Positions 989 to 7,987 of a stretch of DNA of 43,244 bases are shown piece by piece. The notes under the pieces are model-generated. The model was given only the letters and a program-made list of their open reading frames with translations, searched no databases and was not told where the DNA came from. Position numbers and translations under genes: made by a program. Positions within the stretch are counted from its first letter, which is position 1. Every line of letters starts with the position of its first letter. Origin of the DNA: a virus; the IMG/VR virus record IMGVR_UViG_3300045988_091428, positions 1 to 43,244 of that record. One strand, written 5' to 3'.

Positions 989-1192
989 ATGTTAAAATTA
1001 AGTAATAAGACATACGATATTCTAAAATATATCGCTCAATATGTATTACCTGCTTGTGGTACTCTATACTTTGCTTTAGCGGGTATCTGGAATTTACCAT
1101 ACGGTGAACAAATCGTAGGTACTATCACGGCTGTAGATACATTTTTAGGTGTGTTACTAGGTGTTAGCACAAATACCTACAATAAATCATAG
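989..1192 (+). CDS. holin, Dp-1 family-like
   Basis: MLKLSNKTYDILKYIAQYVLPACGTLYFALAGIWNLPYGEQIVGTI matches the remembered Dp-1 holin signature. Two TM segments. Immediately upstream of the endolysin. Confidence 0.75.
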   Translation: MLKLSNKTYDILKYIAQYVLPACGTLYFALAGIWNLPYGEQIVGTITAVDTFLGVLLGVSTNTYNKS

Positions 1193-1202
1193 GAGGAAAA
1201 AT

Positions 1203-2075
1203 ATGGGTAATATTGAAAAAGCGGTATCGTTTATGATTACCGTAGCAAAAGATGATAGTCATGGTTACGACCAAGCTCACCGCAATGGTGGGATTGATTA
1301 TGATTGCTCCTCTTTAGTAGGTACTGCTTTAAATCAAGCAGGATTTAATATTAAGAAATCATCTACTACTAGAACATTAAGAGAACAATTATTAGCTTGT
1401 GGTTTCAAAACTGTTTCAGTTGGTGGTACTCGTAAACGTGGTGACATTTTCTTAAAAGAAGGACATCATGTTGTTATGTGTACGGATGCAAACAATATCG
1501 TCCACGCATCTATCAATGAAAAAGGAACTACTACAGGTGGTAAACATGGAGACCAAACAGGTAAAGAAATTTGCATTAGAAGTTATTACAACTACAAAGG
1601 TGGTTGGGATTATCACTTTAGATTTAGTGACGCTATTTCAACTCAACCGACAACCAAACCTAGCACAACAACTTCAAATAGTTTGATTGCACAAGGTCAA
1701 CAACATACTATCAATATGAGCGGACACGCTATTACAGTTGACGGTATTAATGGTAGAAATACAAAGGCTAATATCGTTAGATGTTTCCAATGTGCTATGA
1801 ACCATGATTACCATTCTAATTTAAAAGTAGATGGTTCATGCGGAGCTAAAACTATCAATGCTTTAGGAAAACATTATGTGAAATTAGGAGAATGTCAAGA
1901 AATGGTAAGAGCGGTGCAAGTCGCTTTATACTGTTATGGTTTCAATCCTGGTAAAACTGATGCCATTTTTGGTGACAATACTAGATTAGCTGTTATTCAA
2001 TTCCAAAAGGCTAAAGGTTTAACGGCAGATGGTGTAGCTGGTAAGAATACCATCAGGGCTTTAATGGGAGTATAA
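1203..2075 (+). CDS. endolysin: Amidase_5/NlpC-P60-like catalytic domain plus C-terminal PG_binding_1-like repeat(s)
   Basis: AGGAGG RBS. IEKAV.FM...YDCSSLVGTALNQAG...KRGDIF...HHVVM...NIVHA resembles Pal/Amidase_5-type hydrolases. The C-terminus AVIQFQKAKGLTADGVAGKNTIRAL is a PG_binding_1 signature. Confidence 0.85.
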   Translation: MGNIEKAVSFMITVAKDDSHGYDQAHRNGGIDYDCSSLVGTALNQAGFNIKKSSTTRTLREQLLACGFKTVSVGGTRKRGDIFLKEGHHVVMCTDANNIVHASINEKGTTTGGKHGDQTGKEICIRSYYNYKGGWDYHFRFSDAISTQPTTKPSTTTSNSLIAQGQQHTINMSGHAITVDGINGRNTKANIVRCFQCAMNHDYHSNLKVDGSCGAKTINALGKHYVKLGECQEMVRAVQVALYCYGFNPGKTDAIFGDNTRLAVIQFQKAKGLTADGVAGKNTIRALMGV

Positions 2076-2100
2076 ATTAAAAGAAAGATGGGTAATTGTT

Positions 2101-2742
2101 ATGAAAAACAAAATATTATATGAGCGTTCTTTAAGAACGTGTATCATTATGTTAGTAGTATGTATCGTGTTTAAGTTATTCGGTGTAGAATGGTTTGACT
2201 TGAACACGAGCATACCAATATTACAAGAATTAGATGAAATTATAATGAATAATTATATTTTATCATTCTTATACAGTTTGATATTTTTATCTATAAATAA
2301 TTTCTTTATTTTAGGTGTCGCCACCAAAACGAAACCTACGGATATGGTTATATGGAGTTTGAAATTTATACCTTTAAACATCCTATTAATATTTAGTAAA
2401 TATTATATTAACAATCCTTTTATTGATTTTGTTTTATTATTGTTGATGTCTTACATTATAGATAATAAAAGTATAAAAAGAATTATATGTTATAATTTAT
2501 TAAATATCGTTTATCAATTCATATCTATATTTATTAGAAATGTAGGTATGATTGAATTGACAGGTGTTGTAACAACTACATTATTGATGATAGATTATTA
2601 TATAATGTTAGTTATTACATATTTATTTCAATTATTAGGAGGTATAGATTTATGGTATTCCCAAGTTATTTCTTCTTCCCTAGTCACAAAGCTATGGAAA
2701 AAGCGTTCAAAAAATTATTTAAAAAATAAAGGAGACGATTAA
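2101..2742 (+). CDS. polytopic membrane protein, unknown function
   Basis: 213 aa with about 6 hydrophobic segments and a basic C-terminal tail. No motif recognised. Confidence 0.6.
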   Translation: MKNKILYERSLRTCIIMLVVCIVFKLFGVEWFDLNTSIPILQELDEIIMNNYILSFLYSLIFLSINNFFILGVATKTKPTDMVIWSLKFIPLNILLIFSKYYINNPFIDFVLLLLMSYIIDNKSIKRIICYNLLNIVYQFISIFIRNVGMIELTGVVTTTLLMIDYYIMLVITYLFQLLGGIDLWYSQVISSSLVTKLWKKRSKNYLKNKGDD

Positions 2743-2743
2743 G

Positions 2744-3316
2744 ATGGGTAAACGTGAGAAAGTGATGTTTACGATATTCGTGATTGTAACTCAAATGCTA
2801 CAATTCTTGTTAGTTTACTCAATAGCGTGGTTGAACGACCGAACTATTGAGTTTTTATTTATATTTTTCAGTTTTCAAATAAATAGAATGGTATTTGGTA
2901 AATCATACCATGCGGATAGCTTATCTAAATGTACATTGATTACATTAGTGATATTTTATTTCTTGATTAAAGGTATTATTCCTTTAGATGTTTCATTATT
3001 CGCTACACCTCTTTTTGGAGTGTATCTATCCTATGTGTTAAATGCGATACAGGAACTGATTGATAATCAAGAAGTTCCTAAACCTTTTGTAAAGAAGAAA
3101 TTGAGAGAACAAGTCATTGATATATTAGGTGATGATTTAAGTGAGGAACACGTAGAAGATATTTGTTTGAAGCATGGATTAAGTTTGAAAGTATCTGAAA
3201 CAGTTTATCTTTATATTTCAAATTCAAAAGATGATGTAGCAGATATACTAGATATTCAAGGTGTTACAGTTATTAGAAGATTGAAGAAGTTTATAGAGAA
3301 AGCGACTTTAAAATAA
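2744..3316 (+). CDS. membrane protein with an AgrB-like His/Cys motif and a C-terminal sigma-70 region-4-like HTH
   Basis: About 4 TM segments. R-MVF-GKSYHADSLSKC has His and Cys 7 residues apart, as in the AgrB motif R..GG.HA.S...C. The C-terminus SETVYLYISNSKDDVADILDIQGVTVIRRLKKFIEKA looks like sigma region 4. Confidence 0.45.
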   Translation: MGKREKVMFTIFVIVTQMLQFLLVYSIAWLNDRTIEFLFIFFSFQINRMVFGKSYHADSLSKCTLITLVIFYFLIKGIIPLDVSLFATPLFGVYLSYVLNAIQELIDNQEVPKPFVKKKLREQVIDILGDDLSEEHVEDICLKHGLSLKVSETVYLYISNSKDDVADILDIQGVTVIRRLKKFIEKATLK

Positions 3317-3325
3317 GTCGTTTTT
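3303..3325 (+). terminator. rho-independent terminator
   Basis: cgactt (3303-3308) / aagtcg (3315-3320), then tttttatttt. Confidence 0.5.
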
Positions 3326-3403
3326 ATTTTGTAATGATACTTAAATTATACTATATTTGAGATTTAAAAGGAGTAAAGTTGAAACTGTAAGGAGGGATGA
3401 GTT

Positions 3404-3877
3404 ATGAACAACTATTATAATCCCGTGCAATCTCGTATGGACTCGCTCATGCAACAAAAAGCATTGATAGACCAACAAATTCAATCTTTACAACAAATGA
3501 GCGTTCCTAATATTAATATCAATAATATGCCATCAAATTCACCCACATCAAATTTCGATTTCAACGGTAAATGGGTGGATGGAGAAGAACAAGCTAGAAA
3601 TATTGCAAACAACAATCTACCTTTGATTTTATTTGATAACAATAATCCTATCTTCTATATGAAGAACATGGATGGTGGGTTTAAAAAATTCAAATTTGAA
3701 GAAATCAAAGAAGAAAAGGTAGAAAGTGCAGATACACAACGTATGGATATGCTAGAGGCTAAAATGGACACTATTTTAAAGGCGCTACAAGGCGAACCTC
3801 AACAAGTACAACAAAATGTACCTAGTGAACCAAAAACTCCTCAAAACGCAAGAAAAGGGGGTAAAACAAATGGCTAA
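3404..3877 (+). CDS. Q/N-rich hypothetical protein
   Basis: AGGAGGG RBS. 157 aa, low-complexity Q/N-rich ends around a W.DGEE...LFD..NP.FY.K core. Confidence 0.6.
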   Translation: MNNYYNPVQSRMDSLMQQKALIDQQIQSLQQMSVPNININNMPSNSPTSNFDFNGKWVDGEEQARNIANNNLPLILFDNNNPIFYMKNMDGGFKKFKFEEIKEEKVESADTQRMDMLEAKMDTILKALQGEPQQVQQNVPSEPKTPQNARKGGKTNG

Positions 3878-4118
3878 CCCTTTAAAGTCTTTCATGGGCG
3901 GTAATTCAAATCCTATTGCAGGTATGATGAACCCTCAAAATATGCTCATGAATATGTTAAAACAACGTAACCCTCAAATGTTCAATCAAGTAAGCCAAAT
4001 GATGAATAATGGAGTCAATCCCAATGACTTCATGAAACAAATGGGAGTTACACCTCAACAAATGGAAATGGCTAAACAACAAGCCAAAAAGATGTTTGGT
4101 AACAACATTAAATTCTAA
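3870..4118 (+). CDS. Q/N/M-rich small hypothetical protein
   Basis: ATG at 3870 overlaps the upstream stop. 82 aa with repeated NPQ/MMN motifs. Confidence 0.55.
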   Translation: MANPLKSFMGGNSNPIAGMMNPQNMLMNMLKQRNPQMFNQVSQMMNNGVNPNDFMKQMGVTPQQMEMAKQQAKKMFGNNIKF

Positions 4119-4155
4119 TGTGGTTATAAATATATTATAGAAAGGAAGATGTCTT

Positions 4156-4794
4156 ATGACTGACGGAGGAATGGGTATTCAACCTACTTACAATCTAGCT
4201 GAAAGAGACAATGATGGTTTCGGTGACGGTTTTGGCGCATGGTTTTGGGTTATCTTAGTCTTATTATTTTGTAATAATGGTTGGGGTAACAATAATTTCG
4301 CTAATGACGCATTATTTGATGATGAGTTCATTAAACGTGATATTTTTAATACTAACCAAAACGTTTCTAACTCTGCTTGTCAAACTCAACGTGATGTATT
4401 GGAAAGTCGCTATACTACTCAATTAGGTATGCAAAACCTACAAGCTAGTCAACAAGAATGTTGCTGTACAACTCAACGTGCGATTGACAACGTAGTAGCA
4501 CAAGATTATAAAAACACTTGTGAAATCACTACAGCAATCCATGCTGAAGGTGAAGCAACTAGAGCCTTAATCAATGCTAACACAATGCAAGAATTAAGAG
4601 ATAGATTAGCCGATAGAGATAGAGAATTATTAACTGCTAATTTCCAATTATCTCAACAAGCACAATCAGCTAACATTATCAGTACATTACAACCTACACC
4701 TAAACCAGCATATCTTACTTGCTCACCATATTATACTTATAATAGTGGTGCTTGTTTCGGTAATGGTTGCGGATGTAATGGAACAAATTTATAA
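4156..4794 (+). CDS. membrane-anchored Cys-rich protein (Gly/aromatic N-terminus plus TM, Cys/Gly-rich C-terminus)
   Basis: GFGDGFGAWFWVILVLLFCNNGWGNNNF, then a Q-rich helical region with a CCC triplet. It ends CSPYYTYNSGACFGNGCGCNGTNL. Confidence 0.65.
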   Translation: MTDGGMGIQPTYNLAERDNDGFGDGFGAWFWVILVLLFCNNGWGNNNFANDALFDDEFIKRDIFNTNQNVSNSACQTQRDVLESRYTTQLGMQNLQASQQECCCTTQRAIDNVVAQDYKNTCEITTAIHAEGEATRALINANTMQELRDRLADRDRELLTANFQLSQQAQSANIISTLQPTPKPAYLTCSPYYTYNSGACFGNGCGCNGTNL

Positions 4795-4850
4795 TCTAGT
4801 CGCATGGCGATATTAGGTTTTATCAAACCTTTGGATTTAAACATTAAAAA

Positions 4851-4877
4851 GAACGGTTCAAAGGAACTGTTCTTTTT
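4851..4877 (+). terminator. rho-independent terminator
   Basis: gaacgg (4851-4856) / ctgttc (4867-4872) with one G-U pair, then a T-run. Confidence 0.5.
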
Positions 4878-4899
4878 ATTTTAGAAAGGAGAAAATTAT

Positions 4900-5319
4900 A
4901 TGATTAATAGTATTGGAGTGGCTAGTCAAACAGTAGCCGTAGGACAAAATGTATTATTTCCAACAGACAGAGTAAGAACACGTTCTTGTCAATGTGCTTG
5001 TAAAGGATGGTTAGCACATGATTTAGGAAGTGGTTTATTCACTTTAACTAAACCAGGTATTTATGAGGTAGAATATAGTGCTAACATCACATCTGCTACA
5101 ACAGGTGAAGCTTCATTAGATTTAGAACTAGATGGTGAAATCATTGGTGGAACTAGAAGTATCTATACAGTAGCTACAGCAAATGCTTTAGGTAGTGTAG
5201 GAGGTAGCACATTGGTTCAAGTGCCTTGTGGAGCTTCTTATATCATCTCTTTAGGAAACAACTCCGCTTTACCTTTAACTGTTCAAGATGCAAATATCAT
5301 TATCAAGAAGATTGCATAA
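4900..5319 (+). CDS. BclA C-terminal-domain-like (C1q/TNF-like jelly-roll) protein
   Basis: LFTLTKPGIYEVEYSAN, LDLELDGEIIGGT and the terminal ANIIIKKIA parallel BclA CTD segments TFVISETGFYKITVIAN, LTIQVNGVPVPGT and ASIIIEKVA. Confidence 0.6.
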   Translation: MINSIGVASQTVAVGQNVLFPTDRVRTRSCQCACKGWLAHDLGSGLFTLTKPGIYEVEYSANITSATTGEASLDLELDGEIIGGTRSIYTVATANALGSVGGSTLVQVPCGASYIISLGNNSALPLTVQDANIIIKKIA

Positions 5320-5540
5320 TGAATGAAAATTTAGATTTTCTAGACGCTATCACTCTTGTTTCTTTTATTATTCAAATACAAAACAATGATGAACTTCATA
5401 AACAAGCAAGTAATGATGAAGTCATAGAAAATCTTCATAATGACATTATGTCTTTAATGATTGAAAACAGACAGTTATCTAAAAAGATAATAGAACAGAA
5501 TAAAGAAATCATTAAACTGTTGAAGGAGGGTAAATTATGA
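5319..5540 (+). CDS. small coiled-coil hypothetical protein
   Basis: ATG overlaps the upstream TAA (TAATG). 73 aa. Confidence 0.5.
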   Translation: MNENLDFLDAITLVSFIIQIQNNDELHKQASNDEVIENLHNDIMSLMIENRQLSKKIIEQNKEIIKLLKEGKL

Positions 5541-6001
5541 GCATGAAGAAAATGTACCAACAAGCCATGAGTCATCCACAAGTAATCGAAAAGATGATGG
5601 AGGACTTTGATATTGTCATGGATATTATGAAAACCGAACACCCAGAACGCTATCGTGACATCAAAACAAATCTATACATTTTAATCAATGGTTATCATTT
5701 CGATAAGGAAACATTAGATGATATTCTAGAAGATATAGTAAATGATGATGGCTCAAAAGCACCTAAATGGAGTGTAGAAGAAACAAACTCTGTCGCACGT
5801 AGCAATGGTATCTCTTTTAGGGATTTCAACGAATACGATTGGAATTATGCTATGAATATGATATACAGTGATTATTGTGAAGTATTGGGAGACAACGTAA
5901 CATCCTATGTTCGTATGGCTCACAAGTTCTTGAACGATAAAGACGCACCAGAAGGAAAAGCTTTAAGGTATGCAATGTGTATGAAAAAAGACTACAAATA
6001 A
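5537..6001 (+). CDS. hypothetical protein
   Basis: GGAGGG RBS. 154 aa. Last gene before the convergent terminators. Confidence 0.6.
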   Translation: MSMKKMYQQAMSHPQVIEKMMEDFDIVMDIMKTEHPERYRDIKTNLYILINGYHFDKETLDDILEDIVNDDGSKAPKWSVEETNSVARSNGISFRDFNEYDWNYAMNMIYSDYCEVLGDNVTSYVRMAHKFLNDKDAPEGKALRYAMCMKKDYK

Positions 6002-6019
6002 TGTAGTCTTTTTCTTTTT
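5984..6019. terminator. bidirectional-type terminator hairpin
   Basis: aaaaaa-gactaca-aataa-tgtagtc-tttttcttttt, overlapping the stop codon at 5999-6001. Confidence 0.6.
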
Positions 6020-6059
6020 AAGCAGTAATTGATTTAATGATTGTGTCCATTATAAATGA

Positions 6060-6087
6060 GTGAGAGGTGATGGGTAAGACCTCTCAC
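6060..6087 (-). terminator. terminator hairpin ending the leftward arm
   Basis: gtgagaggt (6060-6068) / acctctcac (6079-6087). The downstream T-run is weak. Confidence 0.4.
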
Positions 6088-6097
6088 ATATATTATT

Positions 6098-6436
6098 CTA
6101 GCATACATATTTATTGTTGTAAACATCATTTAACAATTTTTTTATTTGTTCAAAATCATTTGTAATGATTGCTATTCCACCTGCATTGTTTATCTTTCGA
6201 CATTCAATTTCCTGTTGTTTACTTGGCCGTCCTGTTCCATCTTCTCTTTTAAGTTCTAAACCTATCAATCTTCCATTGATACATACTATTATATCTGGCA
6301 CTCCACTTCTTTGCGAAGCGTTACCACCGATATTTAAAAACCACGCTTTTTCTTTAAACGTGGTTTTAATATATGTTTCAACCTTCTTGACTATGTTTGA
6401 CTCTAAAGGCGACCTATTAAAGGTCATCTTCTTCAT
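6098..6436 (-). CDS. VRR-NUC domain nuclease (PD-(D/E)xK)
   Basis: GVPDIIVC...LIGLELKREDG...Q matches the VRR-NUC core. Confidence 0.75.
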   Translation of the reverse strand: MKKMTFNRSPLESNIVKKVETYIKTTFKEKAWFLNIGGNASQRSGVPDIIVCINGRLIGLELKREDGTGRPSKQQEIECRKINNAGGIAIITNDFEQIKKLLNDVYNNKYVC

Positions 6437-6857
6437 CTTCTACTTCCTCAACAGTTTCTTCATCTGCTAGTCTAATAATTCTTTTGATGTTTGCATAAAC
6501 ATAACCTTTTTCGTTATCTTTAGGGTCTGAATGTTTGACTTCACATACTATAGATTTACCAATTAATTTTGGTAAATCTTTTGATAAACTGAAATCTTCT
6601 AAAGAACTGTTTCCTAAAGCTGTTCTCGCTAAAATTGAGAATAATACTAAACCAATAGGGTTTTTATCTGTTTTCTTTGTTTTTTTAACTAAATCATAAG
6701 TTTGTTTGATTGTACCACCATTTGCATGAGTAAATACTACTTCGATTTTTGAAGGTTTTGCTTTAGGCATTGCTTTCGCACTTGTAATTGTTAAAACTAC
6801 ATCTTCTCCTGCAGGTACTAATTTGAATTCGCTTTCTACTAATTGAATTGTGTCCAT
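6417..6857 (-). CDS. putative ssDNA-binding protein (DUF669-like) with an acidic C-terminal tail
   Basis: 146 aa ending EETVEEVEDEEDDL. It sits between the exonuclease and the nuclease in a recombination module. Confidence 0.5.
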   Translation of the reverse strand: MDTIQLVESEFKLVPAGEDVVLTITSAKAMPKAKPSKIEVVFTHANGGTIKQTYDLVKKTKKTDKNPIGLVLFSILARTALGNSSLEDFSLSKDLPKLIGKSIVCEVKHSDPKDNEKGYVYANIKRIIRLADEETVEEVEDEEDDL

Positions 6858-6877
6858 AATCTTTAATCTCTCTTTCT

Positions 6878-7987
6878 CTATTTTTTCTTTCTCAATGTTA
6901 GTGTTTCTTTTGTTGATTTAATTTCATACTTGTCTAATACACCGTCAAGTTCCATTGCTTCAACATCATAAGAAACAACTTCTTCAACTGTTTTAGATAA
7001 TGTATAGTTACCTAAAACTGCTTTTGTATCGTTATCTCCCATTTGTGAAGATAACTGTTCTTTGATACCATTTTCACAAGCTTTTAATTGTTTTTCTAAT
7101 TCCGCTAAACCTGTTTCTTTTTTGATGGTATCTATTTTAGCGATAAGTTCATTTGCTTTAGCAACTAAATCATTATCGTCTAAATCATTTTGAGGTTTTG
7201 AAGTTCTTAAAATATCTAAATATTCTTTGTCCTTCACTTCATCAAATACAGGACTGAAACCTGTCTTGATATGTTCATCATACCACTTATTGGCTAATTC
7301 AATCAAGCCTTTAATGTTAAAATGATTTACAGGAATTTTATCGTCTTTTTCTAAAACAACGATTTCCCCGTCTGTAATATCGATATAAGTTTTATTCACG
7401 TCATATGTGAATAATTGAGTATTGCTATCATCTACTACAAAGTTTTGAGGATTGTTATAATCATCATCTTTTAAGAATGATACAACTAAATGTACTCTTT
7501 TAGCACCTTCTAAATAAGCATATTCTAATGCTTGACATAAGTAATAAACAGGTGGATTGTCCACCCAATCCTCTGCACGTTTGGTAGTCTTATATTCAAA
7601 AATATCTGACACCTTACCGCTAGGACGAACGAGTTTACTGTCCCACATACCACCGTAGATTTTTTCATTAGGATAGAAGTCATATTTGACTTCATTATAT
7701 CTGTTACCGAAAAATTCTTCTGGTGATAATACGTTTTCGCTAATTTGTTCTTTGGTCCATTTAATTTGTTTTGGTTCAATAGCTTTACCAGCTAAAGTAT
7801 AAATCGTATCTTCAAATGGAGGTCTAGCACATTTAGTGATTTCACACCACATTTGAAATGGAGTATTCCATTTATTCAATCCTAAAATCCCTGCTAGACG
7901 AGTACCTGTAACTTTTAATTTACTTCTTGGCTCTCCATCTACTAAAATAATTCTTTTCCCATCTTCGCTATATTTCCAATCTAACAT
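6878..7987 (-). CDS. YqaJ/lambda-exonuclease-like PD-(D/E)xK recombination exonuclease with a C-terminal coiled coil
   Basis: The N-terminus TGTRLAGILGLNKW.TPF..W and ...D...IFEYKTT fit the YqaJ-type fold. It is adjacent to the ERF-like annealase. Confidence 0.65.
   Translation of the reverse strand: MLDWKYSEDGKRIILVDGEPRSKLKVTGTRLAGILGLNKWNTPFQMWCEITKCARPPFEDTIYTLAGKAIEPKQIKWTKEQISENVLSPEEFFGNRYNEVKYDFYPNEKIYGGMWDSKLVRPSGKVSDIFEYKTTKRAEDWVDNPPVYYLCQALEYAYLEGAKRVHLVVSFLKDDDYNNPQNFVVDDSNTQLFTYDVNKTYIDITDGEIVVLEKDDKIPVNHFNIKGLIELANKWYDEHIKTGFSPVFDEVKDKEYLDILRTSKPQNDLDDNDLVAKANELIAKIDTIKKETGLAELEKQLKACENGIKEQLSSQMGDNDTKAVLGNYTLSKTVEEVVSYDVEAMELDGVLDKYEIKSTKETLTLRKKK

Follow-up and report, generated by a model that had tools for sequence, protein, structure and literature searches.

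The window, i.e., the whole 43,244-nucleotide stretch of IMG/VR virus record IMGVR_UViG_3300045988_091428 that was analysed, carries a block of six small genes (g1 to g6) at positions 3404-6001. This block is one copy of a widespread, horizontally mobile accessory cassette of gut-anaerobe phages. The core of the cassette in Firmicutes phages is g1-g2-g3, and g4, with optional g5 and g6, is a separately terminated add-on unit. An earlier note, made from the sequence alone, had described a post-lysis accessory block of spore-surface-like proteins.

The six-gene block and its terminators

All six open reading frames (ORFs) were found co-oriented on the + strand, as the earlier note had listed them, and two of the six gene starts were corrected slightly from the sequence. 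The g1 gene (3404-3877) encodes 157 amino acids (aa); the N-terminus is Q/N-rich, a small domain in the centre is conserved, and the C-terminal helix carries a basic tail. The g2 gene (3870-4118) encodes an 82-aa Met/Gln/Asn-rich helical protein and is translationally coupled to g1, i.e., its ATG overlaps the g1 stop (ATGGCTAA). The product of g3 (4156-4794) has 212 aa, arranged as an acidic N-tail, a hydrophobic anchor, a long helix, a Pro-rich motif and a Gly/Cys tail. The g4 product (4900-5319, 139 aa) is a stand-alone BclA_C / C1q-TNF-like jelly-roll. A TAATG overlap joins g4 to g5 (5319-5540, 73 aa), which has a hydrophobic N-terminal helix and a coiled coil, and an ATGA overlap joins g5 to g6 (5537-6001, 154 aa), a DUF7841 protein. 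A G5 run (3857-3877) lies just 5' of the g1 stop and g2 start; the metagenomic variant P0503 is one G short, giving a g1-g2 fusion of 237 aa.

Three hairpins with T-runs, far more stable than shuffled sequence, were found on the + strand (z-scores give the stability against shuffled sequence). The terminator-like hairpin at 3298-3325 (-12.2 kcal/mol, z -4.1) closes the upstream lysis/AgrB unit just 5' of the cassette. The terminator at 4845-4877 (-17.6 kcal/mol, z -7.6) lies between g3 and g4, and that at 5985-6013 (-12.8 kcal/mol, z -6.3) ends the cassette, facing the convergent replication genes. Because of these three strong hairpins, the block is taken as two transcription units, i.e., g1-g2-g3 and then g4-g5-g6. 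The claim that terminators bound and split the block held, and so did its description as an accessory block placed after the lysis genes. Ahead of g1, a sigma-70-like promoter candidate (TTGTAA-17-TATATT, 3329-3357, + strand) was recognized by consensus match only (9/12). Its conservation across lineages was not found by the same scan, and it is counted as weak evidence.

The internal terminator is a conserved feature of the cassette. A GC-rich hairpin with a T-run was present within 80 nucleotides (nt) 5' of g4 in 43 of the 50 lineage-unique loci, compared with 2/50 at the same side of g3. A terminator-like hairpin within 120 nt 5' of g1 was found in 37/50. The stems of the pre-g4 terminators are wholly different between lineages, and the hairpin stays directly 5' of g4 even with g5 placed between g3 and g4. 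It ends 10-25 nt before the g4 ribosome-binding site. A promoter between the terminator and g4 was considered and rejected, as there is no room for it, and therefore g4 probably depends on read-through.

The g3-g4 leader (4795-4899, + strand) contains small hairpins at 4800-4810 and 4815-4830, an invariant CCTTTGGATT, the terminator (4845-4877) with its T-run and the g4 ribosome-binding site. Within the window's wider clade, a small hairpin of the leader shows compensatory changes, i.e., TCGC/GCGA, CACA/TGTG, and CTC/GAG. In the terminator, the loop and 3' side (CAAAGG / AAAGGC) are invariant as well, and CCTTTGGATT is complementary to them. Judged from three related lineages only, the leader may be an antiterminator or attenuator switch. 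No Rfam family was found for the leader, and the Rfam search of 3250-6100 as a whole gave no match.

Predicted proteins of the cassette

The two proteins described earlier as Q/N/M-rich are so in fact: Q, N and M together make up 30% of g1 and 48% of g2, whereas their share in nine large proteins of the window is 12.8%. The g1 protein belongs to PHROG 21718, of function unknown, and its family has 1285 members, all unnamed. The motif of its central domain is WV.GE..A.....V......L.D.....FY.K. Profile searches of g1, g2, g3 and g4 against PDB sequences gave nothing meaningful, and a match of g2 to the designed protein 'Gogy' was rejected as one of composition only. By sequence reading, no signal peptide or lipobox was recognized in g1, g2, g4, g5 or g6.

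The g3 protein carries GFGDGFGAWFWVILVLLF, a CCC triplet and a Cys/Gly tail (GACFGNGCGCNG), and its Cys content is 4.7% compared with 1.1% in the nine large window proteins. These are the features of the Cys-rich, membrane-anchored protein claimed from the sequence. The AlphaFold2 (AF2) model, built on a 44-sequence alignment, shows a short helix at residues 29-38 and one unbroken helix at 55-178, with both ends disordered. Its predicted local distance difference test (pLDDT) score is 80-95 over residues 80-170 and 68 overall. The long helix bears CCC, C, H and E, and the Pro-rich motif PAYLTCSPY follows it. Across the family, an acidic N-tail is followed by a 10-14-residue hydrophobic core between Gly and aromatic residues. 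The family also has a variable segment, which reads as roughly 11-residue repeats in those long members that were looked at by eye. The conserved block reads Q.CCC.T.R.ID...NTC.I..AIHAEGEATRALI..NT.Q.LRD and precedes a second helix; the C-terminal motif LRP.P.PAY(I/L)TCSPY is followed by a Gly/Cys, Gly/Tyr or poly-Thr tail.

Several candidate features of g3 were discarded. A lipoprotein signal was rejected, since LLFC does not qualify as a lipobox and its Cys lacks conservation. The N-terminus was also considered for a double-glycine leader, and this was dropped, the loose resemblance being seen in some homologues and not in the window protein. The docking of g4 by the PAYxTCSPY tail was also rejected because the motif is kept where g4 is replaced or absent. 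The PADLOC defence profiles gave no significant match to the cassette, with a best E of 0.004 to an unrelated PRTase model.

The layout predicted for g3, i.e., an N-terminal anchor and a long Cys-bearing coiled coil beside holin/endolysin genes, is like that of i-spanins (lambda Rz) and BhlA/XhlA. Unlike the spanins, g3 has no lipoprotein partner, most of its hosts are monoderm, and no sequence similarity was found. The crAss-like phages, moreover, already have a separate Rz/LysB-like gene.

The claim that g4 is a stand-alone domain resembling the BclA C-terminal domain (CTD) and C1q/TNF, without a collagen stalk, was upheld by both profile and structure. The protein matches Pfam BclA_C (PF18573) end to end (model 9-128/128, E 1.7e-10), with 41.3 bits against a gathering threshold of 38. 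Its AF2 model has a pLDDT of 89.6. By Foldseek, the best PDB match is the F-BclA CTD (9h38, E 1e-8, template-modelling (TM) score 0.74), together with BclA (1wck/3twi, TM 0.74-0.77) and BxpB/ExsFA (TM 0.72-0.77). After these exosporium proteins come phage fibre knobs and TNF/C1q proteins. In BFVD, the best matches come from human-gut phage contigs and are stand-alone proteins about 135-145 aa long; two already carry the label 'BclA protein'. With g4, the BclA_C fold family has a new stand-alone phage member, and automatic annotation already names proteins of this kind in metagenomic phages.

Although g4 shares the jelly-roll of the BclA CTD and F-BclA tip (PF18573; 1wck, 9h38), it has no collagen-like GXX stalk and no N-terminal exosporium-attachment region. 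The identity is only 17-25%, and a sequence search of g4 against PDB sequences does not reach BclA. The ORF starts at the domain itself (MINS...), and longer family members have only short unrelated extensions. A CxCxC cluster, another difference from BclA, adjoins the conserved loop GWLxHDxGSGxF. Being phage-encoded, also in phages of non-spore-formers, g4 does not follow the restriction of BclA-type proteins to spore-forming Firmicutes.

BxpB/ExsFA anchors BclA. At about 140-170 aa, it too stands alone and has the fold of g4 (8d02, 7r1m, 9h3d), and in the title of 9h3d it is a hub binding a peptide from a fibre protein, which makes it a plausible working analogy for g4. However, no sequence-level relationship to g4 was detected, and no sporulation context exists at the cassette. 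The phage fibre knobs, i.e., the cyanophage A-1(L) short tail fibre CBD (8ke9) and the phi812 spike knob (9eul), are of the same fold class. These knobs are C-terminal domains of long fibres, whereas g4 is a separate gene behind a terminator and beside a gene for a membrane-anchored protein.

The two remaining genes are optional. DUF7841 was assigned to g6 with a Pfam E of 2.4e-21, and this gene also adjoins g3-like genes in crAss-like phages. In other lineages g5 stands before or after g4.

Distribution, exchangeable parts and hosts

The earlier note considered that this set is not a standard module. Instead, it proved to be a very common conserved cassette of gut phages. For g3, 4578 homologues were collected at E <= 1e-3 (90%-identity collection), forming 773 clusters at 50% identity. 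For g4, the homologues number at least 178. Patterns of g3 match at least 551 IMG/VR contigs and those of divergent g3 another 372, two sets that may overlap. In a profile search of 195 fetched loci, g3 was detected in 190, g1 in 180, g2 in 174 and g4 in 170. The block is not a unit of six equal genes. In most loci g1-g2-g3-g4 stand together, and g5 (32 loci) and g6 (19 loci) are patchy. Most gene absences among the first 105 loci examined were due to contig truncation.

The order g1-g2-g3-(g5)-g4-(g5)-(g6) is kept from 95% to about 25% identity. It could be supposed that the block is six unrelated small genes, acquired independently and sharing no common function, as none has an assigned function and g5 and g6 are patchy. 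This is hardly credible. The g1-g2-g3-g4 order persists over that range of identity across at least four genomic positions, the synteny already contradicts independent acquisition, and translational coupling is present.

The g4 slot can be filled by other proteins or left empty. In Clostridium perfringens phages HMD-PC1 and vB_CpeS-17DYC and two 118-kb contigs, it holds an unrelated family, X1, of 118-120 aa. In the Suoliviridae crAss-like phages cr1_1, cr10_1 and cr53_1, it holds X2 (135-146 aa), which is likewise unrelated to g4. The gene order there is holin, Rz/LysB-like transmembrane-coil protein, DUF7841, g3 homologue (E 1e-35 to 1e-39), X2, 187-aa protein, fibre-like protein and DUF5675. 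Only g3 and g6 were detected in these crAss-like copies. A Pfam search of X1, X2 and other neighbours gave nothing. In temperate T7-like podophages the order is tail fibre, g1 (89 aa), g2 (69 aa), g3 (207 aa), transmembrane-coil protein, holin, glucosaminidase and terminases. These have no g4, and their g3 has a poly-Thr tail and no CCC. A scan of viral contigs with the podophage g3 (P0330) found nothing.

In the existing annotation of cr53_1, cr1_1 and cr10_1 (L108, L109 and L111), DUF7841 is called 'sigma factor/ubiquitin-like' and the g3 homologue 'spike protein/glycoprotein'; both names are probably misleading. Phage cr6_1 has DUF7841 without g3.

The cassette also varies among close relatives, as L024 has no g1 and others carry 3.6 kb inserted between AgrB and g1. 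In P0103 and P0468, two independent in-frame chimeras of g1 and g4 (g1::g4), g2, g3 and the N-terminal half of g4 are lost; both represent natural deletion variants or else artefacts of assembly. Because of these chimeras and of L024, the cassette is considered non-essential.

Some divergent lineages (L003:3319-3699; L002, L013, L017, L018, L020, L021) have a conserved gene of about 125 aa directly 5' of g1, which is absent from the window. Its motifs (GDC..RA, GH.V, D.WDS..P.YYW) resemble those of a papain-type Cys/His peptidase, and it has no Pfam match. In a Clostridia metagenome-assembled genome (MAG), an element with an integrase, MmeI, a YobI ATPase and an AAA_15 protein (L015:5758-9061) abuts a g4-g6 pair without g1-g3. 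A full cassette lies on L014, another contig of the same MAG, which suggests that the element was inserted into a cassette.

The best genome matches were a Solobacterium MAG (76% identity), Coprococcus comes and various Clostridia MAGs. The cultured carriers infect Butyrivibrio fibrisolvens (phage Ceridwen, with only lytic growth on record) and C. perfringens. Butyrivibrio and Solobacterium are non-spore-forming, and crAss-like phages imply Bacteroidota hosts. As the hosts include non-spore-formers and probably Bacteroidota, spore formation is no common denominator, and a role at the spore is unlikely.

An altered spore surface was one of the possibilities raised in the earlier note. In a fuller form of this idea, the proteins would be exosporium mimics, a Cys-rich lattice protein with a BclA/ExsF-like trimer, which remodel the spore surface of an infected sporulating host. 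In its favour, the structures nearest to g4 (F-BclA, BclA and BxpB/ExsFA) all belong to exosporium proteins, and some hosts are clostridia. ExsY, CotY and CdeC are Cys-rich, like g3. The weak resemblance of g3 to YjcZ-type tiny sporulation peptides was not sustained, as there was no NCBIfam/Pfam match at E <= 1 and g3, at 212 aa, is not a tiny peptide. The ExsY and CotY profiles did not match g3 either. Besides, the cassette resides in phages of non-spore-formers, parts of it (g3 and g6) in crAss-like phages, and g4 is optional or replaceable and without collagen stalk or exosporium-targeting N-terminus. A spore-surface function is consequently regarded as very unlikely.

Genomic position and proposed function

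The window appears to be a complete siphophage genome in circularly permuted form, with genes for an SPP1-type portal, an SU10-type capsid protein, a primase-polymerase, an SNF2 helicase and a C5 methylase. No integrase was found among its ORFs of at least 300 aa, which were those scanned. By megablast, positions 1000-7000 matched none of the GenBank phages. Upstream of the cassette are a BhlA/XhlA-like 96-aa protein with an N-terminal transmembrane segment and coiled coil (636-926), a 67-aa membrane protein that is a putative holin (989-1192; its homologue in the relative L004 has Pfam Phage_holin_Dp1), and the endolysin (1161-2075). The 636-926 protein, encoded just 5' of the putative holin gene, is shorter than g3 and has the same general layout. 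A polytopic membrane protein of 213 aa (2101-2742) lies between the endolysin and an AgrB homologue (2744-3316; Pfam AgrB, E 4.6e-11). The replication genes, on the minus strand, converge on the cassette from downstream.

The AgrB and 213-aa membrane protein genes (2101-3316) are kept in close relatives (L004, L022-L027), and no AgrD-like small ORF was seen near them on the + strand. Close relatives, e.g., L004:3980-6511, have about 2.5-3.6 kb extra between AgrB and g1, with genes of 105, 390, 101 and 179 aa. The window (3317-3403) has none of this DNA, and the AgrB-g1 junction is a hot spot for accessory DNA.

The cassette is 3' of the endolysin in the window and its close relatives, in Ceridwen and in Dulem virus 33. 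It is directly 5' of the holin in prophage L102 and podophages L112 and L113, and the crAss-like copies sit inside the holin-to-DUF5675 lysis block. It is also found at prophage ends, adjoining integrases or host genes. The recognisable neighbours within 3.5 kb in about 26 lineages are mainly holins/lysins, integrases, tail or head proteins and antirepressors; holins and lysins are the most frequent after integrases.

From the conserved gene order, the core trio without g4, the replaceable g4 and the terminator before it, the g3 architecture, the frequent nearness to lysis genes and the dispensability, it is tentatively proposed that the cassette encodes a membrane-anchored coiled-coil stalk complex with an exchangeable β-sandwich partner, acting late in infection at the cell envelope. 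In such a complex, g3 would form an oligomeric coiled-coil stalk in the cytoplasmic membrane, with g1 and g2 as soluble partners or as factors for its assembly. The second unit (g4, g5, g6), if made only by terminator read-through, would appear at a lower level or later, and the g4 unit would supply an exchangeable β-sandwich adaptor or specificity head. The action at the envelope would be tied to lysis or egress. Candidate roles are to tune or complete envelope disruption, and to handle cell debris and receptors. In this favoured view the cassette would be neither spore-surface nor a core virion component. A wider form of the proposal is that g1-g2-g3 is an unrecognised late gene class, a lysis/egress coiled-coil complex of both monoderm and diderm gut-anaerobe phages, with a swappable head gated by read-through that tunes it to the host envelope. 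This wider form is rather doubtful.

Several observations weigh against the stalk complex. Confidence in the g3 model, a monomer fold, is only moderate (pLDDT 68). The hydrophobic core is only about 10-14 residues long, and its topology is not settled by the flanking charges. The g3 tail motif is kept whatever partner follows, and a direct g3-g4 contact is unsupported. No homologue of known function was found for g1-g3 in PDB, PADLOC, NCBIfam or PHROGs. By position, the cassette of L007 and Dulem virus 35 lies between minor-capsid and scaffold genes, and in the C. perfringens phages and L014 it follows an antirepressor, away from lysis genes. The end of a late operon is, furthermore, a generic moron site, and integrases are frequent neighbours.

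The position also bears on an accessory virion fibre or decoration, in which g3 forms a coiled-coil shaft fixed to the head or tail, a detachable receptor-binding knob like gp38 on T2 fibres is provided by g4, X1 or X2, and g1, g2 and g5 are fibre chaperones. In most cases the C1q/BclA fold forms the knob at the distal end of phage fibres (8ke9, 9eul; tail-fibre and collagen-like proteins in BFVD). The cassette is directly 3' of tail-fibre genes in L102, L112 and L113, and L007 and Dulem virus 35 have it within the head module. Exchangeable tips and dispensability, as in side tail fibres, agree with it as well. However, a membrane-type hydrophobic anchor is unusual at a fibre base, the C. perfringens phage cassette lies among early/antirepressor genes, and the podophage copies have no knob at all. 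This explanation is judged unlikely.

Similarly improbable is a classical moron expressed from the prophage, in which g3 and its partners block superinfection or alter the surface of the lysogen. As in the morons of Hendrix and colleagues, the cassette is a terminator-bounded, possibly autonomous insert between modules and variably present, in close relatives too. A promoter-like site and the location at prophage ends beside integrases or host genes fit this explanation. The cassette differs from morons in being a multi-gene, deeply conserved unit, split by a conserved internal terminator and present in phages without integrase. It occurs in apparently non-integrating phages, such as that of the window, where the ORFs of at least 300 aa showed no integrase, and in crAss-like phages and Ceridwen. 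The promoter is not conserved, the partner proteins have no export signals, and PADLOC gave no match.

No functional or proteomic data were found in the literature on BclA_C or DUF7841 in phages, on YjcZ or on the cultured carriers. Likewise, no paper was found on the cassette as a unit, the trio core, the internal terminator or the spread from Firmicutes to crAss-like phages.

If its genes work as a single unit, the cassette ranks among the commonest gene sets of gut phages that are still uncharacterised, carried on hundreds of IMG/VR contigs by siphophages, podophages and, in part, crAss-like phages. Lysis, whose genes it adjoins, is regarded as a well-understood step. Knowing what the cassette does could bring to light a further component of lysis or egress in phages of anaerobes, or a new type of accessory fibre. 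The conserved terminator before g4 would offer a ready-made case of stoichiometric or temporal control. The fold of the exosporium proteins BclA and ExsF circulates as a free-standing, swappable phage gene, and this bears on the origin of spore-surface proteins.

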